Assembly: GCA_050173015.1 (NCBI GenBank)
Contig: JBFXLE010000001.1
Coordinates: forward strand, 64,001 to 128,000
DNA from: Calditrichaceae bacterium
Lineage (GTDB): Bacteria; Calditrichota; Calditrichia; Calditrichales; JBFXGD01
Reading direction: 5' to 3'
DNA: 64,000 nucleotides
Shown here piece by piece: positions 1 through 12,470 of this stretch. The translations under genes and the position numbers were made by a program. How positions within the stretch are numbered: the stretch's first letter is position 1; each line of letters begins with the position of its first letter. The notes under the pieces were generated by a model. It was not told where the DNA came from, searched no databases, and saw only the letters and a program-made list of their open reading frames with translations.

Positions 1-279
1 CAGGAGCGAGGAACGGGCCGTTGGTTTGTCGGGAGCATTACTGATGAGCATCAGCGATCGGTGACCATTGACTTTAGTTTCCTTGATGATGGTGTTGAAT
101 ACCAGGCGGTTATTTATAAGGATGGCCCGGACGCGCATTGGAACGACAATCCGGAGAGTATTAAAATTGTTGACGAGGAGCTGGATCGGAGATCAAAAAT
201 GAGCTTCACGCTGGCGCCGGGAGGCGGGCTGGCGATCAGTTTACAGCCGGTAGTAGGGAAAGAAAAGTCTGGGATGTGA
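1..279 (+). CDS. Glycoside hydrolase family 97 (SusB-like), C-terminal part; 5' end is outside the window
   Basis: Frame 1 is open from base 1: QERGTGRWFVGSITDEHQRSVTIDFSFL...YKDGPDAHW...LAPGGGLAISL, typical of the GH97 C-terminal domain. Confidence 0.85.
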   Translation, partial: QERGTGRWFVGSITDEHQRSVTIDFSFLDDGVEYQAVIYKDGPDAHWNDNPESIKIVDEELDRRSKMSFTLAPGGGLAISLQPVVGKEKSGM

Positions 280-289
280 TTAAGGGGCG

Positions 290-396
290 GAACTCTGATT
301 TGTGTGATTTAATGATGAAGATGATTAAAGAAACCGGAAATCAGAGTCTTCATTTAATCACGCGAACCCGCCGGAGGCGGACAGGTCATAGTTCAG
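290..396. repeat. Imperfect palindromic (REP-like) intergenic element
   Basis: GAACTCTGATTTGTGTGATT pairs with AATCACGCGAA[19-nt insert]TCATAGTTC; the right arm recurs at 9599-9640. Confidence 0.55.
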
Positions 397-578
397 GCAA
401 AGAAGTAAGAATTTGAGAGCGTTAAGAGAAATGAGTACGGACGGGTTAAATTTGGTCGCCCGGCGGTTTAAACATAAAAAACGTCCTGACCATTTGCGCA
501 TGGAAAGCGGATAATTTTAATGGAATTAAATTTACTAAAATTTAAGATCAAATTGAAGACTATTAATTATAACCCCCA

Positions 579-706
579 ATATGACAAGATGTTCAGTGGC
601 GAAGGACGATGGGGCAATGAAGCTACATCGAGAAATAAGCTTTGTGAAGGCACCGAAGCGACCCATTCAAAAAGAGCCCTTTGTCCACTGAAGCAAAATG
701 TTATGT
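579..706 (-). mobile_element. attC site (last of array; R' core is degenerate GTC)
   Basis: + strand ATATGAC-AAGA-TGTTCAGTGGCGAAGG ... CCTTTG(T)CCACTGAA(G)CA-AAAT-GTTATGT; arms pair with two unpaired bases. Confidence 0.65.
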
Positions 707-808
707 GCTTTTCGAATGTTTTAAACACACTGCTGTTTTGATGGCGTCTATCCCTTGTTAGCCACGGGTATTCTTGCGATAGACAGAAAGTAACATTCAT
801 TAACCCGG

Positions 809-1729
809 TTATTCAAATTTTATATGATGTCTTCGTGACCACCAACGTATAATGAGAAGGGCAAGTATAATAATCGGAATGACAATAACACTACCCTCCG
901 GACCAAACGCACCTCCGCTTAACCAATCCGGGCTAGTAGCGGTCTGGTCTATCAGCGTAGCTTTTTTATGCCCACTCGCAGCATATCCAAAAATTGGTCC
1001 CTGGAAAAAGTTCCACCCAATATGCATACCGATTGACAACCATAACATTTTTGTTGCAAGATAACCATAGATACGCAAAAGACCAAATAAGACAATAATG
1101 GATGATGAAAGTAATCCAGCATTAGGATTCGTGGAATGAATTAATCCATAGATAAGGCAGGAGATAGCAATAGCTAATTTCATGCCCATTCCGGCAATCA
1201 TATTTTGGAAAAGGTAGCCCCTGAATACCAACTCTTCCCAATAGCCTACGAGTATGGTTTCCAATAAAAGAATGGATAATGAACCAATTGAGATAACACT
1301 CATGAATCTAACAAAGTAAGAAGACTGGTCATTCAGTTCATGTGAATTCCCAACTTTGATTCCATTATACTCAATAAGTCCTAGAATTATCATCAAAGAA
1401 AATACCAGACCGGCCATCAATCCACTTAAAAAAAAACCGAATACTATATCTTGAGTAGCGCTTTTATCAATTTTTAATCCTAATGAAACAAAAGAACGCT
1501 TATCCAATAATCTCCTCGCTAAAGGAACTGCAATTGATGCACCAATAGCTAAAATTGATAATATAACTATGCTGTAATTCTCTAGGAATTCCTTTTTTGA
1601 AATCTCTCCCAAAAGTGGTTTTATTGCTAATATCATAGCAGAGAATAGCCAGAACATCATGATAAAAATCAATATTCTCCAACCTGCACGTAACCTGCCT
1701 TCATCTGAATTGTAAAAGTATTTTTTCAT
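809..1729 (-). CDS. CPBP family (CAAX protease/Abi) intramembrane glutamic endopeptidase; cassette gene
   Basis: EELVFRGY, YGLIH and HIGWN motifs; multiple TM helices; RLRAGWR N-terminus. Confidence 0.9.
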   Translation of the reverse strand: MKKYFYNSDEGRLRAGWRILIFIMMFWLFSAMILAIKPLLGEISKKEFLENYSIVILSILAIGASIAVPLARRLLDKRSFVSLGLKIDKSATQDIVFGFFLSGLMAGLVFSLMIILGLIEYNGIKVGNSHELNDQSSYFVRFMSVISIGSLSILLLETILVGYWEELVFRGYLFQNMIAGMGMKLAIAISCLIYGLIHSTNPNAGLLSSSIIVLFGLLRIYGYLATKMLWLSIGMHIGWNFFQGPIFGYAASGHKKATLIDQTATSPDWLSGGAFGPEGSVIVIPIIILALLIIRWWSRRHHIKFE

Positions 1730-1818
1730 AGCCTTTCATTTCTCATCAAGGTTCCGGCGTCTCTTTAATTGTATCTTCGACTGTTAATTGGGAGGCGTAA
1801 ACACATTTCTTTTCTTAC

Positions 1819-1915
1819 ACATAACGCCACATTATAACCTGATTTTACACAGGTAAATTTGCAAACCCTGAAGCAGCCTCCGCGTGTAAAATTCAGGTTG
1901 ATAATTTTGTTATAT
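1819..1915 (-). mobile_element. attC site
   Basis: + strand ACATAAC-GCCAC-ATTAT AACCTG ATTTTACAC ... GTGTAAAAT(T)CAGGTT(G)ATAAT-TTT-GTTATAT; canonical extrahelical T and G on the bottom strand; 13 bp after the stop of the upstream gene. Confidence 0.9.
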
Positions 1916-1928
1916 GGCATTGCAAAAT

Positions 1929-3977
1929 TTATATTTTAAGTTCGAAATCTTTTATTTGTTTTAACTTTTTCTCATAAACTTTATTAAATATTTTGTCATA
2001 TATTTTAAAATGAAGCTGAAATGGGTCATATTTTTTACCTAAAATCCTTAATGTAATTGTTACTCCGAGTGTAACAATAAATGCGATTGGTTCAATCTTA
2101 TCCCAATTGTTTAATATTGCCGAGGCAAAGGAAAACAACGCAATAAAAAAGAAAAATAACATTGTATAACTAATAATGTTTAGCCACCTTTTTGCAATCG
2201 TTTCAGATTGAATTTCTTGTTTCTTTTTCCACTTAATAATTGTTTCTATTAGATTTTCATCCTGGCGTTTCTTTTCATTTTCTAATTCTTTAACTCTTTG
2301 CTCTAAAGCTTTAAACTGATTGTCTGTCTCATCCAATTTTTGTTCTGAAATCTTTTTTTCCTTTGATATAAACTCAACTTCTTTTTTGGTACGTTTAATC
2401 TCTTCATCAAAAAACATGGCTAAATTTTTAATTTCCCCTTGATGTTTTTTATTGAGCCTTTCTTTTGCTTTCATAATATTATCTAATATCCATTCAGCTT
2501 CAATATTGTGTATATCTGATGGATCTGTATCTTTAAGTATTTCTTGAATATGATTATCATAAATCAGGATTGAAATATCTGTATCGTTAATTTTACCTTC
2601 ATCTCGAAGTATTTTTAAATTCTTATAGAATGCAGACCACACTGATCTGTCAATAAAAAAATGACGTGTATTTAACGATATCCAAGAAGTTAGATGAATC
2701 TCTTTATCATGTGTCGGATTTTTTAACCACAATAGATTAGTAAAAAGCTTATCAGGGATAACTTCACTTATTGTACCATTTTTTTTATGTTTATCTTCAT
2801 AATAATTAAATTTGGATAATTTTAAATCAGATGTTAAAAATAATGCATCACAATTTTCAATCTTTGTTCTACGTCCCCTTCTAAATCTAACAATTTGATC
2901 AATAGCCGCTAAATCATGATTTTGTTCTCTAGTACCTTGCTCATCTTTATAATGTTGTAGATTTGATTTTCTATTAGGATCAGATGGTTCATATTTTTTA
3001 ATATCAATGGGTGTTGATAGTATCCTAATGCCATATTCAGTTAATTTGTTCTCAATATTAACGATGAATTCTTTTACATCAGCAGATGTCCAACCTTGAG
3101 ATTTCAAACTACTATATAAAGAATCAATTTTGACTCCATCTGGATAATGAAATTGTTCATTCTGGTATTTCTTTAAAACATTTATCATTTCTTCAATTGT
3201 AAAATCAAAAATTCTTAATTCAATATTTTGTTGAGATTTAATTAATTCAAACAACTCGAGTGCTGGTTTATTCTGTTCTATATAGCGCATACCTAACAGA
3301 CTAAACATATAGTTTGAATCTAGGAAAACTCTTATGTTATCTAATTTCTTATCAGGCTCTTCTAGACTATCAGTATAAATGATTGAACTAATAATACCAC
3401 CAATGATAATGTCCTGAAGAGTTTTAAATAAATGTGGCTTAGAATTTTCAACATAAAATAAAAAATCTATTATTTCAGATTCGAATTTATCTACGTTTTC
3501 TTTTGGAGGTTTCTCAGAATGGTTTGAACCACCTAAAAATGGTTCAAAAATTTCTATATTTTCCTTTACTACTTTTTCAATAATTAATTCAATTTGTTTT
3601 TTAGGAATCTTTATAGAATGGGTCTTTTTCAAAAAAGTTTGTGCTTCTTCAACGAACTCATTTATTCTTCTTACTTCATCACGTTCAGATTCTAAAGTTG
3701 AAACAAATTTTACTCCTTCATCAGTTAGATAGCATTTTCTCTGATATCTTTTTAAAAAACCTTTCCTTTTTGCTCTTGTTGCTATAATACTTAAAGAATG
3801 TATTGGCACCGTAAGGTTGAACTTAGATTTAATTTCTTCTTGTATCGTTTCGAGTGATGATCCAGTTTTATCTAAGGGTAATACGTTTATAATTAGTGGA
3901 TAAAAGGAGTCAATATAATCTTCCCCTTTATTGTATAAACAACGAATTAATGTGTAAGTATATATTCTGCTATACAT
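1929..3977 (-). CDS. Uncharacterised protein: wHTH-like N-terminus, PIN-like domain, coiled coil, two C-terminal TM helices; cassette gene
   Basis: VFLDSNY, TIEE, NHDLAAI and FLTSDLKL resemble PIN acidic motifs; KQ/E-rich coiled coil; two hydrophobic segments near the C-terminus. Confidence 0.65.
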   Translation of the reverse strand: MYSRIYTYTLIRCLYNKGEDYIDSFYPLIINVLPLDKTGSSLETIQEEIKSKFNLTVPIHSLSIIATRAKRKGFLKRYQRKCYLTDEGVKFVSTLESERDEVRRINEFVEEAQTFLKKTHSIKIPKKQIELIIEKVVKENIEIFEPFLGGSNHSEKPPKENVDKFESEIIDFLFYVENSKPHLFKTLQDIIIGGIISSIIYTDSLEEPDKKLDNIRVFLDSNYMFSLLGMRYIEQNKPALELFELIKSQQNIELRIFDFTIEEMINVLKKYQNEQFHYPDGVKIDSLYSSLKSQGWTSADVKEFIVNIENKLTEYGIRILSTPIDIKKYEPSDPNRKSNLQHYKDEQGTREQNHDLAAIDQIVRFRRGRRTKIENCDALFLTSDLKLSKFNYYEDKHKKNGTISEVIPDKLFTNLLWLKNPTHDKEIHLTSWISLNTRHFFIDRSVWSAFYKNLKILRDEGKINDTDISILIYDNHIQEILKDTDPSDIHNIEAEWILDNIMKAKERLNKKHQGEIKNLAMFFDEEIKRTKKEVEFISKEKKISEQKLDETDNQFKALEQRVKELENEKKRQDENLIETIIKWKKKQEIQSETIAKRWLNIISYTMLFFFFIALFSFASAILNNWDKIEPIAFIVTLGVTITLRILGKKYDPFQLHFKIYDKIFNKVYEKKLKQIKDFELKI

Positions 3978-4019
3978 TAAATTTTCCTAGGTTATAAATG
4001 AAACTGATCTCGAATAGCC

Positions 4020-4150
4020 ATGTAACGTTTTGGCTAACTTGCCGCAGGATTGCGGGGCACAGACTTTGAATAACCAATAAAACTTGGTGCGGGCTTCAAA
4101 ACTCGAAAAACCGCACAGCCCCTGCGGTCAAGTTGAGCCAATTGTTATAT
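4020..4150 (-). mobile_element. attC site
   Basis: + strand ATGTAAC-GTTT-TGGCT AACTTG CCGCAGG ... CCTGCGG(T)CAAGTT(G)AGCCA-ATT-GTTATAT; extrahelical T and G; the upstream gene stops inside the site. Confidence 0.92.
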
Positions 4151-5579
4151 TGCCTTTATTGTTTTCTAATTTTGATAATTCTTCCGAAATCAAATCATCA
4201 ATTTGCTGCCGCAATGTTTTTACTTTTTCACGAGCTTTTTCTGATTGAACTTCTCTCTCTTGAATTTCTTTTACTATTTGCTCTTGAGTTTTATATGTTG
4301 GAATAGGAACTTTGATATTGAGTATATCTGTTGAAATAATTCTTGGATGTTCTTTACCGCTCATTAAAAATTTACTCTTTTCCAAATATTCTTTAGAGAG
4401 TAGTAAATATCTAATATATTCGGACATTGCTATATTTTTATCACGAATCTCAAAAGGGATAAACTCAGTTGTTCCAATTAATTTTTTTTCAGGTATATTT
4501 AAAATTGTGTAACCCAAATATGGACGTAGTTTATTAGTAAGAAAATCACATTCACCAAACTCAATTCGATCAGAACCTAATTCAATAACTATATTTTCAA
4601 AATCAATAATTTTACCATTGGGCGATTCGACCTGTTCAAAATCTATTAGAATTCTTGGTTCATTAAGGAAGCCCTTTTTAAATGTATTTTTATCGCTTAA
4701 TTTTATTATTCTTTTTAATGGTAATAAATCATATTTGTCAGCAGTCCCTTCAAATAAAAATCCCTTATGATTAAACCAAAAATCATTGTATTCTGCACCA
4801 ATACGTAATGCTTTATTATTAGCAATATAATTAAGATCCGTTACTAAATTTTCAACTCTATATGTTTGTAGTGATTTCGTTTTCAGTGAATATTTGCTGA
4901 ATATTTCATCTATAATTACTTGTAGAGATTCAACATTTCCTTTTTCTTTATATAAATGATTTTCAAGTTTTCCAATTTTATCAATAATTTCTTTTTGTTT
5001 GCTTAATTCGATTGACGGTATTTCCAAATTAAAAAAATCATCCCTTTGAATTCTTGGATGACTTTGACTTTTTCCAGAACGAAGAAATACTGCTTTTTCT
5101 CTAAAAGAATTATGTAATAGGAAATATTTAAGGAGCTTTGGTTTTATTTTATGTTTATTGACAATCAGAGGATAGAATTCTGTTGAACCAATAATTTCAA
5201 TATCATTTTCAGATATATCACTAAGCAGAAAAACGTAACCAATATGACTATTCAATTTTGAAAACGCTAAATCTGCATCGCTTAGATAAATTTTATCAGA
5301 ACCAATAACATCTGTAATATTTTCATGTAAATTTATTGGAAAACCAGTTTCAGGTTCGATATTAGCCAAATCAATTAGTTGATATGTTGTGCTAAGTGAA
5401 TCTTTTTTGATAACTTTTGCCGATGCAAACATAGCAACATTTTTTATTTTAATGGTATCAATATTATAATCAAATATTTTACCATTTCTTGATTTCCAAA
5501 AATCTACATACCTACTACCAAAACGTAAAAGAAAACGTTTACCAATATCAGAAAAATTTGTTTCTGCAATCATTTCCAT
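4128..5579 (-). CDS. Restriction-modification specificity (S) subunit with two TRDs
   Basis: Two internally homologous halves (SKLNSHIG/NKLRPYLG; GSTEF/GTTEF; HPRI...IP...Q..I), each followed by a helical spacer; overlaps the methylase stop. Confidence 0.85.
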   Translation of the reverse strand: MEMIAETNFSDIGKRFLLRFGSRYVDFWKSRNGKIFDYNIDTIKIKNVAMFASAKVIKKDSLSTTYQLIDLANIEPETGFPINLHENITDVIGSDKIYLSDADLAFSKLNSHIGYVFLLSDISENDIEIIGSTEFYPLIVNKHKIKPKLLKYFLLHNSFREKAVFLRSGKSQSHPRIQRDDFFNLEIPSIELSKQKEIIDKIGKLENHLYKEKGNVESLQVIIDEIFSKYSLKTKSLQTYRVENLVTDLNYIANNKALRIGAEYNDFWFNHKGFLFEGTADKYDLLPLKRIIKLSDKNTFKKGFLNEPRILIDFEQVESPNGKIIDFENIVIELGSDRIEFGECDFLTNKLRPYLGYTILNIPEKKLIGTTEFIPFEIRDKNIAMSEYIRYLLLSKEYLEKSKFLMSGKEHPRIISTDILNIKVPIPTYKTQEQIVKEIQEREVQSEKAREKVKTLRQQIDDLISEELSKLENNKGNITIGST

Positions 5580-7960
5580 TCCACTTTTTGAATGAAGTAA
5601 TCCAAAATATAATTGGGATTTTTATTGTCAATAATAATAGTTCTATTTCCATCTATTACTTTAGAATCGAATAATTCATTCGATCTAATTTCTTCCTTAT
5701 TTGCACCACGTTTATAGCCGATCTCTTCTGCATGAGCCATAAAAATTGTATAATTCAATTCTTTACTGACTCTATTGAATACCCACCAATCAGTATCAAT
5801 TTGCTTTATGTCATCTTCGTATTTTTCTTTTAATTCTAAGATGGGAAGAGAATCATCATTTGAATCATAAAGATTTAAAATATACTTTTTTAATAATTTT
5901 ATAAATTCTGGTTTTATTTCTTCAGTGGTTTTTCTTTTCTTCAGTTTATCAAATTCTTTCTTTGTTAATTCAAATTCTTTTTTATACTTATCCCACTTTT
6001 CTACCCATTGTTCAACTTCTCTCTCAGATTTTTTTTGTGCGAATAAAAGACTGGTTTTGGTCATTGTGTATGGAGCAAATGCTAAATGAGGTAAAGATAT
6101 TACTGCCCTTACCCAAAAATATTTAAAGATAAATAACCTTATCTCTCTATTACTTGTGGTGTCAAATACTGATTCAGGAAGAACAACGCCCAATCTGCCA
6201 TTTGGACGTAAGAGCTGATACCATCTTTCAGTAAATAAATTTTCCGTGTCAACTTCCTTTTTAGCTTCTTTCTTTAAAGAATTTGCTATTTTCTTTCCCT
6301 GCAAATATAATTCAGGGAACTGTTTTGCAGTTTCTCTATCAACTGTTACACTAAAAGGAGGATTTGAAATTACGATATCAAATTGTTCATTAACCAATTT
6401 TTCATATACTTCATTTTTCGATTCAATATTTAAAAGTTTTGCATTATCATATTTGCTAAATTTAATTAAACCATCAGCGGGATGGATATTTGCAGAACCA
6501 TCACCATGTCCTACCATATTAACCTTACTCGCCATTGCTAAATCAGGATTTATTTCAATTCCATAAATGAATTCTTTTGCCCATACATTTCTTTTTCTTT
6601 CAGGGAAATTAACTTCCAAAAATTCTTCCACATCATCAGTCTGTCTTAGAATGGTGTATTTACCTTTATCCGCTAAAATATGGTTTGTTATTTCCTTCAT
6701 TGTCTGTATTAAAAATGTTCCTGATCCACATGCTGGATCAATTACAAATGGCAGTCTTGGTCGCCCATCTTTACCATTAATTAAATCGAAAGCCAACTCA
6801 TCAATTTTTAAAGCTTTCACTATAAAATCGACAATATTGTGGTGAGTCAGGTATTGCCCTTTTGTTTGCTTGAGTTCAGACCTGACAATCTTTTCAAAAA
6901 AATCACCCAATACGTCATATTTATTTGCTGTAAATGAGATACTTTGAATAGTTTCAACGACATATTTAACTTTGTTGGCATCGAATACAATATCTGGAGT
7001 CTTTTTTAATTTCTCGTCAGAATAGCCAAGAAGATAATTCAATGCACACTGCGTATATTTCTTTGTCTTATTATCAAGTTCACCACGATATAATCTATTT
7101 ATTCTTTCATAAGTTTTTTCAGCAGGTTCGCTTGTATCGCCTTCAAAAAATATTTGAAAATCATATGGCTCGCCATTAGCTTTGATTTTCTCATCCATAA
7201 TTTTAGTTAAAAATAGTCCTATAAGATTATAAAACAACTCGTTTTGGTGCTGACCGCCGCCCCACAACACATTGTGTAAATCATCAGCAATTCGATCTAA
7301 TTCTTCCTTTTTAACATTATCTCTCAGTTGATTTTCAGGATTCAAACTACCTTTTATAAATTTCGGTGGTTTATCAACAATCCCATAATTCTTTGGGATT
7401 ACCCTTAAATTGGGTCGTCCAGCTTCTTCCCACTGTTCCCATGTTTTGAATTTTGTATAATCTATGACTTGTGTTTTTTCAATTAATTCAGAATCATCAT
7501 AGTATCTGGTATAATAAATCAGATAATTTAAAATTCCACTTCCCTTATCTTCATTAGCAGCTCTTTCAAATAATTGAGTTTTAATAGAATCTTCAAAATA
7601 TTTTTCATAATCACTTTCAGATTTTAGTTCAAAGATTGCAAATGGTGTTTTGTCAGGACGATAAAGAATAATGTCCAATAAGCTTTTGTTTATTTTATAG
7701 GGGTGGCCAATTGTTCTTTTAAATTCTAAATCAATTATTTCTTTGTTATTTTTATAGCCATATTTTTCAATTAAATCATAGAATAGTCCGACTCTCACTT
7801 TTTCTTCAGGATCATCAAAATTATCTGAAAATGATTGTGTAAGATATGTTACTTTTCCATCTTCAATTTTGAAATATGACTTTTGGCTTCCATTTTTTAT
7901 AAGTGAATCGAAATCTTTTGGATAAGCTTCATCTGTTTTAATGTATCTTTTCGGTGTCAT
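5570..7960 (-). CDS. N6-adenine DNA methyltransferase with N-terminal HsdR_N-like PD-(D/E)xK nuclease domain (type IIG/IIB-like RM subunit)
   Basis: GQYLT, IDPACGSGTFL (motif I), ISNPPF (motif IV), VVLPES; N-terminal PEEKVR...YGY...LDII...IFELK; no helicase motifs. Confidence 0.88.
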   Translation of the reverse strand: MTPKRYIKTDEAYPKDFDSLIKNGSQKSYFKIEDGKVTYLTQSFSDNFDDPEEKVRVGLFYDLIEKYGYKNNKEIIDLEFKRTIGHPYKINKSLLDIILYRPDKTPFAIFELKSESDYEKYFEDSIKTQLFERAANEDKGSGILNYLIYYTRYYDDSELIEKTQVIDYTKFKTWEQWEEAGRPNLRVIPKNYGIVDKPPKFIKGSLNPENQLRDNVKKEELDRIADDLHNVLWGGGQHQNELFYNLIGLFLTKIMDEKIKANGEPYDFQIFFEGDTSEPAEKTYERINRLYRGELDNKTKKYTQCALNYLLGYSDEKLKKTPDIVFDANKVKYVVETIQSISFTANKYDVLGDFFEKIVRSELKQTKGQYLTHHNIVDFIVKALKIDELAFDLINGKDGRPRLPFVIDPACGSGTFLIQTMKEITNHILADKGKYTILRQTDDVEEFLEVNFPERKRNVWAKEFIYGIEINPDLAMASKVNMVGHGDGSANIHPADGLIKFSKYDNAKLLNIESKNEVYEKLVNEQFDIVISNPPFSVTVDRETAKQFPELYLQGKKIANSLKKEAKKEVDTENLFTERWYQLLRPNGRLGVVLPESVFDTTSNREIRLFIFKYFWVRAVISLPHLAFAPYTMTKTSLLFAQKKSEREVEQWVEKWDKYKKEFELTKKEFDKLKKRKTTEEIKPEFIKLLKKYILNLYDSNDDSLPILELKEKYEDDIKQIDTDWWVFNRVSKELNYTIFMAHAEEIGYKRGANKEEIRSNELFDSKVIDGNRTIIIDNKNPNYILDYFIQKVEWK

Positions 7961-8631
7961 ACAAGTTCCTTGTCCTTGAAACTAAAATATTGATTGTTGC
8001 CAATTATTATGTGATCGTGTAATAAAATTCCGATTGTTTCACAAGAATTTTTAATTTTTTTCGTTATTTCAATATCTGCATCACTTGGAGTCGGATTGCC
8101 AGAAGGATGATTATGAATACAGATAATTGAGGTAGCGCCATTCCTAAGAGCACTTTTAATTATTTCTCGTGTGTAAATATGGCTATGAGTTATTGTTCCT
8201 TTGAAAATATCTTCAATATTCATAATCTGATTTTGACCATTTAGATAAACTACTTTGAACAACTCGAAATCTAAATCTCTCATTGTTAAGTAAAGATAAT
8301 CATAAATGGATTTTGAATCTTCAACAATCTTCCGTTCTTTTAAATTTTCTTCTAAAAAACGCTTATTCAATTCAATCACGGCAAGCAACTGTGCAATTTT
8401 TGCTTTGCCTAATCCGTTAATTTTAAGCAAGGAATTTATATCTGAATTATACAATCCCCTAAGACCACCAAAATTATCAATTAAATCTTTAGCTAAATCA
8501 ATCGCACTTTTATTCTTAGTTCCAATTCTGAGAAAAATAGCTAACAACTCTTCAGTGGATAAATAATTAGCACCTTTATTAAGAAGTTTTTCTCGGGGTC
8601 TTTGATCTTCTGGTATTTCAGATATTTTCAT
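7957..8631 (-). CDS. radC: RadC family JAB-domain protein (full length, with HhH region)
   Basis: RPREKL...LSTEELLAI, GLGKAK, HNHPSGNPTPSDAD, LHDHIII; stop overlaps the methylase start (ATGA). Confidence 0.95.
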   Translation of the reverse strand: MKISEIPEDQRPREKLLNKGANYLSTEELLAIFLRIGTKNKSAIDLAKDLIDNFGGLRGLYNSDINSLLKINGLGKAKIAQLLAVIELNKRFLEENLKERKIVEDSKSIYDYLYLTMRDLDFELFKVVYLNGQNQIMNIEDIFKGTITHSHIYTREIIKSALRNGATSIICIHNHPSGNPTPSDADIEITKKIKNSCETIGILLHDHIIIGNNQYFSFKDKELV

Positions 8632-8661
8632 ATACTTTTTATGAGTGATGATTTCATATTA

Positions 8662-8690
8662 GCAATATAACATATTGATTAGACGTCTCT
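8662..8690 (-). mobile_element. Candidate attI site heading the cassette array
   Basis: Minus strand GTCTAAT-CAATAT-GTTATATTGC: an L-box-like element, a spacer and an R core, without attC-type long arms; core is complementary to R'' at 4144-4153. Confidence 0.55.
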
Positions 8691-8706
8691 GTTATTTATC
8701 CTTTTA

Positions 8707-8784
8707 TTCTAATATTGGAAAACATTTTCTAGATATAGAAATCTTATTCTAATGTTAGAAAAAAAAATATTTCCAATATCGTAA
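8707..8784. promoter_or_regulatory. Phased palindromic sites TTCTA-N4-T(A/G)GAA
   Basis: TTCTAATATTGGAA (8707), TTCTAGATATAGAA (8727), TTCTAATGTTAGAA (8747); weaker copy at 8771. Confidence 0.5.
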
Positions 8785-9125
8785 AAATTAACCATCGGAA
8801 ACAGCTCGCTCCTGCGTTCAATTGATCAAGAGTATTTAAGACCTATCCCAGGTCATTATTGGTTTGTTTTCTTAAAACCCGCATGAGACGATATCCAAAT
8901 AACAAGCGTCATCTATTTGTATCAAAATCAACTTTGTCATCATTTTCAATGATTGAAGAAAAAATATAAGATGAAACTAAAATCGTTATCATTATAATCA
9001 TATATATTGAAAATTTCAAGTATCTAATGTATCCAGACAGAATGGTTTATGAAGAATCTTTTATCTCATGTCATCCATATTTTGGCATGTATCCCGGTCG
9101 TTTTTTTTCAGTATCATTAACGTTC

Positions 9126-9167
9126 AAAAATAAAAACTCCCGAAGCCTGTAATGGGGCTCCGGGAGT
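9126..9167 (-). terminator. Probable intrinsic terminator
   Basis: ACTCCCGAAGCC / GGCTCCGGGAGT stem preceded by an A-run on + (U-run on -). Confidence 0.55.
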
Positions 9168-9200
9168 GGGGTTTTGTTTCCCATGCATGTCTAAGGTACG

Positions 9201-9353
9201 TCTCCGTTGCGCGTGACAGGCGCTCTCTCACCAGCATGGGAGCTTTCTCTCACCGGCATTACAGAATTCTCTCACGCGCATAACAGTTTTGTCTCACCCG
9301 CATAAGAGAATTGTCCCACCGGCGTGACAGACCGTCTCTTATAAGCGTCGCAG
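9201..9353. repeat. Degenerate tandem repeat, about 7 units of 22-23 bp
   Basis: Units start at 9201, 9224, 9246, 9268, 9290, 9312, 9335; consensus approximately TCTCTCACCGGCATGACAG-nnn. Confidence 0.75.
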
Positions 9354-9598
9354 ACCTACTTCTCACGCTTGACTGGGACAAGATCCATCTGTTTTACTAA
9401 ATTCCGTTTTGCCCGAATCCGGATACTTTTTTTTTTAATATGGGAAACAGCATTAAAATCATCAATGTTTTCCACGCCTTCGCCGGTCACCAATGGATAA
9501 AAGTCACATATTCTGCCAAGCTCAACTGATTCATTACCTGGGCTTAAATTAATAAAGATCTCATATCTGATTAGGGATAGAAAATCATGTAATCATCC

Positions 9599-9640
9599 TA
9601 ATCAAGCGAATCCTCCATAGGCGGACAGGTCAGAGTTCAG
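9599..9640. repeat. Second copy of the right arm of the element at 355-396
   Basis: 36/42 identical to 355-396, same orientation. Confidence 0.7.
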
Positions 9641-9711
9641 ATATTGGTTATTAAAGGTAAAGTTTAGCCGAAGATACGTGTTAATCTCAATATCTTTATA
9701 GCGGTGACTGC

Positions 9712-10176
9712 TTAACTGTCTCCGCCATGATCACCTATTAATACCCAACGGGCATTCTGTTTCATCAAAATATCCGTCCAGCGGCCCTGCTCGCTTTTTC
9801 GTTTTCCCTCTTTATCCTCGCTCATTTCCATATAATAGTAATGAACAAAGGCCACATTCCCAAAAATTTTAATAGCCAACGGGTGAATATCATAAGTGAT
9901 AATCTTTGATGTGGCAAAGGATGGCGCTACCCATTTTTCAAGAGACGCTTTGCCTGACGGCATCGCGCTTTTGTTATACCAACCGCTGTAATCGTTGTGG
10001 AAATAACTCAAAAATCCGGGCAGATCACGCTTCGCGCTCATTTGCCAGTAGGTTTCTACATTTTTCCAGACTTCTTTCTGCGCGGCTGACCATTCCTGTG
10101 CCCGGACCGGCGCGCTGTCGATTAATATAAATGTAATCATCAAAAAGAAAGCAGAAATAATTGTGAACTTTTTCAT
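9712..10176 (-). CDS. Secreted NTF2-like (DUF4440/SnoaL-like) protein
   Basis: Signal peptide ending VRA-Q; ...GNVAFVHYYY...GRWTDILMKQNARWVLIGDH; RBS GGGGGA. Confidence 0.85.
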   Translation of the reverse strand: MKKFTIISAFFLMITFILIDSAPVRAQEWSAAQKEVWKNVETYWQMSAKRDLPGFLSYFHNDYSGWYNKSAMPSGKASLEKWVAPSFATSKIITYDIHPLAIKIFGNVAFVHYYYMEMSEDKEGKRKSEQGRWTDILMKQNARWVLIGDHGGDS

Positions 10177-10618
10177 GGTTTCCCCCCTTGAATCTGATAA
10201 GAATGAACTCAGACAATAAATGTCAGAGCTTGCAACTATTTATCTTCGGCTAAATTTTTAAACTAAAAGATCTGAAGCAATTTGACAGACCGGCCCTCTG
10301 TTAACGTCATTATTTTTTGAACGATTACTCACACCGCGGTTAAATATTCCACCCTTATTAAATTGCATGTGATTAAGACGAATATGAACAAGTCTCTTTA
10401 TTATTAAGGTTTAAGAATGATTAGCTTCTAAAACGAATAACGATGTATTATATTCCCCGGCTTAATGAGTCATGATAGCTGTTTACATGATCATAAATTT
10501 CAAAATTCACATTAGAAGCGGTTGAATTCTATCTTTTTGGTTCTTATATTCAAGCCATCATTTGTCGTGATTTAAACCAACTTGCGGCGACAATAAACAA
10601 TTTGCTAAACCGGAGTTG

Positions 10619-10643
10619 AAGACCTGTATCCGGGTCTTTTTTT
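10619..10643 (+). terminator. Terminator-like hairpin in the leader of the 10756 ORF
   Basis: AAGACC...GGTCTT followed by a T-run. Confidence 0.5.
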
Positions 10644-10755
10644 GTTTCCGGGAAAACGGAAAACGTGGAGATTTGTGAGGATTGCAACCACGGAAAATAT
10701 GTGCTAAAACCTTAAAGCGTCCTCAAAATCTCCTCAATATCAGAGGAGGTATCTT

Positions 10756-11568
10756 ATGAAACAGCACTACCCATATTTAGCCGTCGAAGTCATGCCGTTT
10801 GTCTATGAAGTCAAACGTATCCGTTTTATCAAAAACCCCAATATCATGGTTCCGCAGGATGTACTGGCGATTGTATCAAATGATATTGCCCGGTTTGGTA
10901 AAATAAAAGAACGCAAAGAAAACCGCGTCATCAACGCGGCCATAGGATTTCTCAGAAAGGCGGGACATTCCGGGCTTGTCTTTTTGTCAGAAACAGAGGT
11001 TGTTTCAATTGAAGAAGATGGCAGCGTAAAAACTTTGCCGGAACCGGTTAAAAATTTGATTCTTACCGGCCATTTGGGTCAGCTCGGCGGGCAAATCTAT
11101 GAGCCGGACAATAAACAATTGTTCGCCAAATACACGCTTGACAAGGATATGCGTGTGGTGTTTTTTGCCATCTTTGTTCGCAACGAAGCGCTGGAATCAA
11201 AATATCCGGGTGGTTTGCGGCGTTTTCATGAAAAATACGATACGCTTTGCTTTAACAATGAAATGACATTCGCGGATATGGTGATGGGTTTGGAAGACGA
11301 TTCCTGGCATGAAATCATCAGGGATCTGGAGTCACATGATATTAATTATCCGGATGATTTTATCGAAAATGAATTCTTTGGAATTAGATGGGGAATAGAA
11401 ATGGAAGAGAAGCTCCTGAAGGAAAAAACGGGTCAGGTCAAAAAGATCGAAAAAAGCTGCGGAGCAGATTGGCTGATGGGGCACCTCATCGGGCATGATC
11501 TTCATGTTTATTATAACGAACCCGCTCGGGAGGTATCAAGTTTTGATCAGACGGGACAGATGACATAA
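10756..11568 (+). CDS. Hypothetical protein
   Basis: 270-aa ORF with strong RBS GAGGAGG; no family recognised. Confidence 0.7.
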   Translation: MKQHYPYLAVEVMPFVYEVKRIRFIKNPNIMVPQDVLAIVSNDIARFGKIKERKENRVINAAIGFLRKAGHSGLVFLSETEVVSIEEDGSVKTLPEPVKNLILTGHLGQLGGQIYEPDNKQLFAKYTLDKDMRVVFFAIFVRNEALESKYPGGLRRFHEKYDTLCFNNEMTFADMVMGLEDDSWHEIIRDLESHDINYPDDFIENEFFGIRWGIEMEEKLLKEKTGQVKKIEKSCGADWLMGHLIGHDLHVYYNEPAREVSSFDQTGQMT

Positions 11569-11642
11569 ATCACTGCCTCTTTTATAATCCGATTTCCTTT
11601 ACTATATTTCATTTACTTTCAAATTCGGCACGATGAGGGGAT

Positions 11643-12470
11643 ATGGCGGGAAATTCGGATCAGAATAAGTTGAAACCATGGCAGGCAAAGCTGCATACGG
11701 TTATTTTTGAAGCTGACACACGCCCGGGTAAATATTTTGATATAGGACTGATTGTCACCATTCTGGTGAGTGTGCTGGCGGTGATGCTGGACAGCGTTCA
11801 GTCGATCACTCTGCTTTACGGCAACTGGTTATACGCCGCGGAATGGTTCTTTACCATCGCGTTTACCATCGAGTATATTCTTCGGTTAAGCTGCGTGGGG
11901 CGGCCCATAAAATATGCCGTCAGCTTTTTTGGCGTCATCGATTTGCTGGCCATACTGCCAACTTACGTGAGTGTAATTGTGCCCGGCAGCCAGTTTCTGT
12001 TAGTTATAAGAATTCTGCGTGTTTTGCGCATATTCCGGGTATTCAAACTAGTTAAGTATATCAGCGAAGCCAAACTTCTTAGACAGGCGCTTAGGGCCAG
12101 TCAACGCAAAATAACGGTATTTTTATTCACCGTGCTGACCAGCGTCGTCGTCATGGGTTCGCTGATGTATATGATCGAAGGCGCGGGGAATGGATTTACC
12201 AGTATTCCCAGAAGCATTTATTGGGCGATAGTCACCTTGACCACCGTTGGTTACGGTGATATTTCTCCTCAGACTCCCATTGGTCAGATGCTGGCATCTG
12301 TTATAATGATAATGGGATACGGCATTATTGCAGTGCCCACCGGTATCGTCACGGTGGAGATGACACGCGCCCAGCAGAAAATCGTATCGACACAGGCCTG
12401 TCCGCAGTGCGCGGCGGAAGGTCACGATCATGACGCGGTACATTGCAAGTATTGCGGAGCTAAACTTTAA
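11643..12470 (+). CDS. Voltage-gated-type potassium channel (ion transporter) with C-terminal Zn ribbon
   Basis: TTVGYGD selectivity filter; S4-like RILRVLRIFRVFK; CPQC...CKYCG. Confidence 0.95.
   Translation: MAGNSDQNKLKPWQAKLHTVIFEADTRPGKYFDIGLIVTILVSVLAVMLDSVQSITLLYGNWLYAAEWFFTIAFTIEYILRLSCVGRPIKYAVSFFGVIDLLAILPTYVSVIVPGSQFLLVIRILRVLRIFRVFKLVKYISEAKLLRQALRASQRKITVFLFTVLTSVVVMGSLMYMIEGAGNGFTSIPRSIYWAIVTLTTVGYGDISPQTPIGQMLASVIMIMGYGIIAVPTGIVTVEMTRAQQKIVSTQACPQCAAEGHDHDAVHCKYCGAKL

Follow-up and report, generated by a model that had tools for sequence, protein, structure and literature searches.

An array of integron-type gene cassettes lies at ~495-9040, on the minus strand, of a 64,000-nucleotide stretch of the Calditrichaceae bacterium assembly GCA_050173015.1, referred to below as the window (G000:C1:64001-128000, where G000 is the host genome and C1 and so on are its contigs). 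The G000 assembly comprises 4.34 Mb in 54 contigs and is 97.5% complete. G004, G006, G009, G038 and similar handles denote other genomes, L0xx are fetched loci or contigs, and X1-X4 are sequencing runs, in which all matches are contigs, not reads; X3 and X4 both come from a single study, which is not the likely source of the genome. Coordinates are those of the window unless a contig or locus is named.

Five minus-strand genes are packed at 809-8631 with a GC content of 26-33%, compared to 40-49% in the flanking DNA, and are distributed over three cassettes. Cassette A (4026-8670) has genes for a RadC-like JAB protein (7957-8631), a restriction-modification (RM) subunit (5570-7960) and a specificity (S) subunit (4128-5579), all assigned from profile or PDB matches. 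Cassette B (1825-4025) codes for a 682-amino acid protein (1929-3977), which was studied using a structure model and a homologue search, and cassette C (585-1824) for a CPBP/Rce1-like intramembrane protease (809-1729). The GC content of 0.29 in cassette A and 0.28 in cassette B, against 0.42 in the G000 genome, supports a foreign origin of this cargo. These cassette limits had been proposed in an earlier note on this DNA and agree with our reading of the crossover points. The same note described three hairpin sites, and all of them are present: site 1 at 579-706, site 2 at 1819-1915 and site 3 at 4020-4150.

The array is not a bare cluster of hairpins. It starts at a repeated module (8671-~9040) with an attI-like end (8671-8775) and a leader with a promoter (8776-9040), just upstream of which a hairpin search found a terminator-like structure with a T run (9136-9167; 12 pairs, 8 of them G-C). 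Past cassette C it ends in the stub of a fourth cassette (~495-584), which consists of a 5' leader only and has no genes. This stub was recognized from its alignment with the leader of an attC site on contig C45 (C45:2196-2325), which precedes an HsdM gene and aligns with positions 585 down to ~495 of the top strand at about 88%; a separate comparison of the same pair gave 89.7% over 68 nt. Since 495-584 matches the leader after the C45 attC, the array once continued and was cut.

Beyond the stub lies an abundant genus-specific repeat (282-436), of which G000 and G038 contain dozens of copies. It occurs here and there as ~170-nt tandem arrays, often at contig ends (e.g. G000:C29:1-1300), and it is apparently unrelated to the integron sites. 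An X1 contig joining 9025 back to 350 (side of 47, 4 differences in 67 nt) was considered as a possible circle and is read instead as a paralogous module beside this abundant repeat. A second X1 joint, 3587 to 5951, was ignored, its side being only 21.

attC sites and cassette boundaries

The bottom strand of an attC site has an AAC box and a GTT box, paired arms, and an extrahelical T and G, the boxes being the inverted R'' (RYYYAAC) and R' (GTTRRRY) around an imperfect palindrome. All three sites in the window read on the plus strand 5' xxxxAAC, arm, loop, arm with a bulged T and then a bulged G, GTTAxxx 3', and each lies just downstream of the end of a minus-strand gene, with the genes opposite the bulge-bearing plus strand, which is the bottom strand. 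The box pairs in sites 2 and 3, ACATAAC...GTTATAT and ATGTAAC...GTTATAT, are of the attC type. The available text of Cury et al. (PMC4889954) names such extrahelical bases (EHBs) as attC features. DNA folds of sites 2 and 3 have two single-base bulges on the 3' arm of the plus strand (z of -2.9 and -3.5) and that of site 1 has one clear bulge (z of -2.2), so that an unpaired T and G on the same strand, claimed in the earlier note for every site, hold for sites 2 and 3 and only in part for site 1. Site 1 is the weakest of the three: its box, ATATGAC, has a degenerate GAC core and its G bulge is shifted to 6 nt from GTT. Sites 2 and 3 are canonical attC sites, and site 1 is degenerate. A 77-amino acid open reading frame (ORF) of no family overlaps site 1 (567-800, minus strand) and is probably not a gene.

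Both strands of the whole genome were searched with a structural scanner for AAC and GTT boxes pairing at no fewer than 6 of 7 positions, together with three stems that are perfect or nearly so and a T and a G bulge at fixed distances; locally shuffled genomes served as control. Strict rules returned three hits, namely sites 2 and 3 and C4:10714-10842, against none in each of five shuffled genomes. At relaxed rules, the only ones that found site 1, there were 23 hits, against 11, 11 and 10 in shuffled genomes. Plausible additional sites at C1:20962, C4:9875, C4:10714, C4:39112 and C20:72949 all lie directly after a gene end in the correct orientation. Pairing in the attC alignment is 95.1%, compared to 29.5-41.2% when the alignment is slid, a figure which is not independent evidence because the sites were chosen by a pairing-based scanner. 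No attC-like Rfam family matches the window at gathering scores, the only match being a SAM riboswitch, and Rfam may hold no attC family.

Two covariance models gave a further view of these sites. R1 was trained on five attC sites of G000 and seven of G006, a relative with a complete genome and an integron integrase gene (intI). It scores site 2, which is outside the training set, at 41.4 bits and finds further sites genome-wide; the 68.5 bits of site 1 come from a member of the training set. R3 was trained only on 16 attC sites of the intI-linked array of G006, leaving out the one that resembles site 3. Over window positions 1-12000, with filters off, R3 scores site 3 at 52.4 bits (E 3e-13) and site 2 at 32.2 bits (E 2e-7) on the plus strand, compared to 17.9 and 14.9 bits on the minus strand. 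Its genome-wide matches are site 3, C4:7250, C4:39112 and C20:74327. Site 3 is also 90.6% identical over 138 nt to an attC of the G006 array (L028:13705-13834), with unrelated cargo. With gaps of 1.1 and 2.1 kb between them and no intI nearby, the three sites form a cluster of attC sites without an integrase (CALIN), for which two or more clustered sites suffice.

Complementarity between the R'' of each site and the start of its own cassette, a further claim of the earlier note, was borne out by recomputation: the matches are 10/10, 9/10 and 8/10, against 8, 7 and 5 for the array partner. This is what insertion of circular cassettes predicts. Other samples also contain these cassettes in different surroundings. 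One contig of ~2.0 kb in each of X3 and X4 matches 584-1826 only, that is, cassette C alone, with 12 differences, 1 gap and flanks unlike the window, which confirms the 584/585 boundary. Site 3 alone (4023-4149) was found in another context in X3, and in several contigs of X3 and X4 the match to the module starts at 8667-8669 and is preceded by different sequence. Homologues of cassette A in metagenome contigs L059 and L060 (86% and 75% nucleotide identity) lose their homology at 8671 and 8673. In L059, an attC (R1 46.6 bits, E 8e-10) ends exactly at the limit of the homology, immediately upstream of the homologue. G004 has an attC on the 3' side of a 24%-identical homologue of the 682-amino acid protein, whose gene end is estimated, not read. 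The earlier note had stated that homologues never lying beside attC sites would speak against its reading, and these two loci show the opposite. The cassettes are thus separate units, and the attC sites that delimit them are of the kind found in integrase-bearing integrons of this order.

The radC-RM-S block (4167-8633) was also detected in X2, a run with a hot springs metagenome label from a study other than the likely source, at about 95-98% identity. We considered whether X2 holds these RM genes without an attC, as would be expected of recent cassette formation, and dropped this idea: the flanks are unlike the window at the threshold used but unreadable, and the 30 letters after 8633 look like a diverged version of the same leader, which weighs against it.

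The head module and its copies

The ~370-nt module at the head of the array begins right after the crossover 8670|8671 and is repeated in the genome. The copies are homologous from the crossover itself, which follows a variable xx(A/C)TAAC, and this limit defines the attI-like end (8671-8775, minus strand) with the crossover ...AATATG|TTA. One to three 14-nt palindromes (TTCTAATATTAGAA type) lie near the crossover, and Tandem Repeats Finder reports a 20-nt unit repeated 2.9 times at 8705-8762. The leader (8776-9040) contains, on the minus strand, TTGAAA-17-TATAAT at 9019-8991, the highest-scoring promoter-like site between 500 and 9700 (11/12), with hexamers and spacing that are kept among module copies. 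A palindrome of the TTCAATCATTGAA type follows the -10 hexamer. No conserved RNA fold was found in the leader (consensus of -2.6 kcal/mol, compensatory change in 4 of 26 predicted pairs). A gene starts about 18-104 nt past the crossover in 12 of the 14 module copies examined.

Using a sequence-only model of the first 64 nt of the module end (R2), we detected 15 copies in G000 and 3 in the congener G038 at E < 1e-4, and BLAST found the module in 2 of the 39 genomes of the order, G000 included. Outside the genus R2 returned mostly noise and no convincing copy in most genomes of the order, the exceptions being G002:C121 and G009:C368. The former matches at E 1e-4, and R1 found no attC in the 9.2 kb fetched around it. 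The latter (L055:146-240) is an attI-like site very similar to the module end, in a 3.5-kb contig with no intI.

The complete genome of G006 offers an integrase-bearing array for comparison. Its intI (L021:1501-2442) has one in-frame TGA and points towards the cassettes, within L021:1501-2940 an ORF of ~128 codons lies between intI and an attI-like site, and at least 20 attC sites follow (L028). Among ORFs of at least 80 amino acids in this array, 15 are on the plus strand and 6 on the minus strand, and those on the plus strand end 3-26 nt before an attC; this arrangement of genes and attC sites served as a control for site orientation in the window. The ~100 nt between intI, with its short ORF, and the first cassette of G006 contain two palindromes of the module type, spaced much as in the module, and an identical ...AATATG|TTA crossover. 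Local alignment of the window copy with this site scores 69, compared to a maximum of 32 in 30 shuffles. For all five long module copies the best match in 238 kb of relatives' loci is the G006 intI-adjacent site or its G009:C368 counterpart, with scores of 57-100 against dinucleotide-shuffle maxima of 39-51. Taken as sequence likeness, these results make it reasonably probable that the module end is an attI site.

Eight of the 15 module copies lead cassettes that end in an attC of correct orientation (R1). These array heads are in the window and at C1:19.8k, C4:36.2k, C20:76.6k (three attC sites), C7:75.0k, C45, C3 and C10:18.7k, the attC calls of the last three being weak (E 1.6e-4 to 0.09 depending on the search). 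Cargo of the module-headed arrays includes a Type II RM pair, PDC-S14, PDC-S49 with Type I M and S, DUF3800, a transglutaminase-like gene with an FGE-sulfatase gene, and another CPBP. The window array is one of at least eight small module-headed arrays in one genome, several of them with anti-phage genes. A second small attC cluster, G000:C4:7250-10842 (L009), has two two-gene cassettes (87+102 and 111+95 amino acids), which look like toxin-antitoxin pairs by size only.

Integrase searches and alternative explanations

A profile search for intI elsewhere in the genome, as suggested in the earlier note, returned nothing above the cut-off of 265 bits for TIGR02249 (IntI). The best hits, 87.6 and 80 bits on C19, skip the IntI-specific model positions 188-242, and the DNA there has room for only ~21 residues, so no integrase with the IntI-specific insertion, and hence no complete integron, was found in G000; an unassembled intI is possible given the completeness and contig number of the assembly. 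PF00589 has seven matches in G000, of which three are intact genes (C19, C10, C16), and none on C1, in agreement with the statement that the window holds no tyrosine recombinase. IntI scores above the cut-off in 20 of the 39 genomes of the order and does not in the congener G038. In the latter genome, whose contigs are short, an empty-site comparison found no match to the left flank of the array. A truncated module copy on C5 is followed by a 46-amino acid C-terminal tyrosine recombinase remnant (G000:C5:153649-153789; L050:4650-4793) with an RSPLD-like end, which is 46-51% identical to most IntI C-termini of relatives. It scores 38-47 bits against relatives' IntI and 37.7 bits against the genome's own XerD-like protein, and is only a hint of a lost integrase. 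Decayed tyrosine recombinase fragments of this type were also observed on C9 (three), C43 and C10.

In our judgment ~495-9040 is very probably a chromosomal integron whose integrase gene has been lost, if there ever was one. The attC models, the IntI and PF00589 searches and the cassette-exact contig matches support the proposal of the earlier note, an integrase-less array of integron cassettes. Its order on the minus strand is terminator, module with a sigma-70-like promoter and an attI-like end at G|TTA, cassettes A, B and C, and the truncated leader of a fourth cassette. Each cassette would have entered as a circle, IntI recombining its folded bottom-strand attC with the attI-like site, so that cassettes were inserted one by one at the module end. 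The module promoter may now drive at least cassette A. Since the genome has no IntI, the array would be frozen unless an integrase arrives in trans. Service in trans by a distant IntI, which the earlier note had considered, is only partly supported, as no IntI was found in this 97.5%-complete assembly or in G038.

Several observations weigh against this integron reading. Recombination cannot be shown, because the genome has no IntI. R3 gives site 1 only 8.6 bits (E 1), which is not significant. Downstream of 7 of the 15 module ends R1 detected no attC, and four tandem module pairs have genes but no detectable attC between them (C4 32.3k/36.2k, C20 79.8k/76.6k, C7 76.1k/75.0k and C4 207.0k/205.2k); integrase recombination alone does not explain these pairs. 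Promoter-like sites in the region are not enriched (46, compared to 49.1 in shuffles), so that the promoter call rests on conservation among copies. As for attI identity, none of the three short module copies aligned best to the G006 intI-adjacent site, no module copy in G000 has an intI beside it, and a whole-genome search with R2 missed the attI of G006, where its only hits had E > 0.04.

This last result would also suit another explanation, in which an integrase placed cassettes at secondary genomic sites (attG-type insertions, yielding single attC sites without an integrase, SALINs, and small CALINs) and the module is a repeat with a hotspot end rather than a relative of attI. The many scattered small arrays and the lack of intI both in cis and in the genome are also as expected of such insertions, which are demonstrated and proposed as the origin of small CALINs in the part of 10.1101/2022.09.11.507474 available to us. 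However, in every copy the junction falls at an identical position within one conserved 64-nt sequence, whereas attG sites are diverse; the long copies resemble the intI-adjacent site of G006 down to the two palindromes and the crossover; and the conserved promoter lies upstream, as in an integron platform. We consider this explanation unlikely.

The module could also be a non-autonomous transposable element (a miniature inverted-repeat element or a derivative of an insertion sequence), which inserts after TAAC and brings its promoter to existing cassette junctions, its likeness to attI being convergence of AT-rich sequence. Its many copies confined to one genus, the sharp boundary after (A/C)TAAC, the partial copies, which contain either the promoter part or the end part alone, and the tandem copies would all suit such an element. 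Yet its far end lacks a sharp limit, no duplicated target can be seen, no transposase is linked to the module in the regions examined, and inspection by eye alone gave no sign of the remainder of a split attC beyond the promoter end of the window copy. The scores against G006 and G009 are also well above those of dinucleotide-shuffled sequences, and a transposable element appears quite improbable. Least probable of all is that the hairpins are ordinary terminators or repetitive extragenic palindrome (REP)-like sequences in a plain genomic island: each does follow a gene end in a genome rich in other repeats, but the R and L boxes, the bulged T and G, the scores from a model whose training sites all came from an integrase-linked array, the 90.6% identity of site 3 to an attC of G006 and the cassette-exact matches in other samples leave it very little room.

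An extension of the integron reading is that the genus has many integrase-less modules of a promoter and an attI, each taking up and expressing a short array of its own, in many cases of defence genes. Together these might make up a distributed integron whose integrase acts in trans and is unassembled, variable among strains or incoming. We offer this only tentatively, as the less probable form of the integron explanation.

Cassette cargo and relation to known integrons

The RadC-like JAB protein of cassette A matches RadC at E 5e-44 and has only weak JAB hits in PADLOC. The 796-amino acid RM subunit matches RM.BsaXI (PDB 8w0p_A) over residues 49-767 at E 6e-140; it has a gamma-type N6-adenine methylase domain, and its N-terminus weakly matches HSDR_N_2 (23.6 bits, cut-off of 25). 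The S subunit (483 amino acids) is weakly similar to S.BsaXI (476 amino acids) at E 6e-6. PADLOC models match the RM and S subunits at E 2e-43 and 1e-21. BsaXI is a Type IIB restriction-modification enzyme. Judged from sequence, cassette A has the composition of such a system, a combined nuclease and methylase subunit with a separate specificity subunit, and resembles BsaXI in the nearly full-length RM match and in the similar length of the S subunit. It differs in the weak similarity of the S subunit and in the RadC-like gene that precedes the pair. The recognition sequence probably differs from that of BsaXI, because the S subunit is only weakly similar.

The protein of cassette B has no sequence match in Pfam, NCBIfam, PADLOC or PDB. 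There are 153 homologues at E <= 0.001, and among the 120 listed the names are generic or absent. In the phylum 2 of 86 genomes have a match, G000 included, the other being G004 with the homologue described above. A structure model (pLDDT 78) has an N-terminal region of helices and strands, a PIN-like centre and long helices. Foldseek against PDB gave weak matches to PIN domains (probability 0.97-0.99, E > 0.06) and none at E <= 0.001. A comparison of 28 relatives shows invariant acidic residues in the PIN-like part, and the protein could be a nuclease effector. Its hydrophobic C-terminal stretch, read by eye, may span the membrane. The protease of cassette C is CPBP/Rce1-like (PF02517, E 6e-15) and matches no PADLOC model. 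The description of the array in the earlier note as loaded with defence genes thus stands for one cassette of three, the BsaXI-like RM system recognized by PADLOC, while the proteins of cassettes B and C match no PADLOC model.

Two features outside the array were also recorded. A 22-nt tandem repeat (TCTCTCACCCGCATAACAGAAT type, 4.9 copies) lies at 9224-9331, between a DUF4440 gene and the terminator. A SAM_alpha riboswitch match (RF00521) at 10554-10629 on the plus strand scores 42.2 bits (gathering score of 36); downstream of it is a 270-amino acid ORF without a Pfam family (10756-11568), and RF00521 is described for Alphaproteobacteria.

The locus is a CALIN with defence cargo, a known kind of element, in an unusual multi-platform form. 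As in the CALINs described in the text available of PMC4889954, its three attC sites lie at intervals below 4 kb, intI is absent from the surroundings and from the genome, and the cassettes are mostly unrelated to those of clinical integrons. It differs in being headed by a conserved promoter and attI-like site, with at least eight arrays sharing the same head. With the G006 integron it shares the attC type, the arrangement of genes and attC sites, multi-gene cassettes, and an attI region with two palindromes and the same crossover. G006 has intI, the ~128-codon ORF and at least 20 largely uniform attC sites, whereas the window has neither intI nor this ORF and its three attC sites are heterogeneous. 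Isolated cassettes or very small arrays in genomes without an integrase, and expression that depends on a nearby promoter, are features in common with the SALIN and attG insertions of 10.1101/2022.09.11.507474, as far as its available part describes them; in the window the insertion point is one conserved repeated sequence and not one of diverse genomic sites.

Cassettes with anti-phage systems are reported from mobile and sedentary integrons in the accessible portions of 10.1101/2024.07.02.601719 and PMC12614218. The window array resembles these defence integrons in carrying such systems and differs in its host, from a small and little-studied phylum, in the lack of an integrase and in its large multi-gene cassettes. 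A table in the part seen of PMC10295459 lists a CALIN for one cultured species, which is not linked to any genome used here. A limited search of the literature found no description of attI without an integrase or in multiple copies, and we do not claim that none is in print.

The locus adds restriction-modification and candidate defence genes to the integron cargo known from a poorly studied phylum, and the family of the 682-amino acid protein, which has many homologues but no named function, merits functional tests. According to the parts of Cury et al. (PMC4889954) available, 95% of CALINs have no intI pseudogene that can be recognised in their vicinity, and for most integrons attI is not known and is out of reach of searches. 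Shared heads of a promoter and an attI-like site, together with single cassettes found elsewhere, bear on the question of how CALINs arise. With at least eight arrays under the same head, it becomes testable whether integrase-less arrays keep a working docking site and promoter, and whether attI-like sites can multiply on their own. If the idea of a distributed integron is true, CALINs would gain a defined origin and a way to be expressed, and attI sites would be able to multiply independently of intI.

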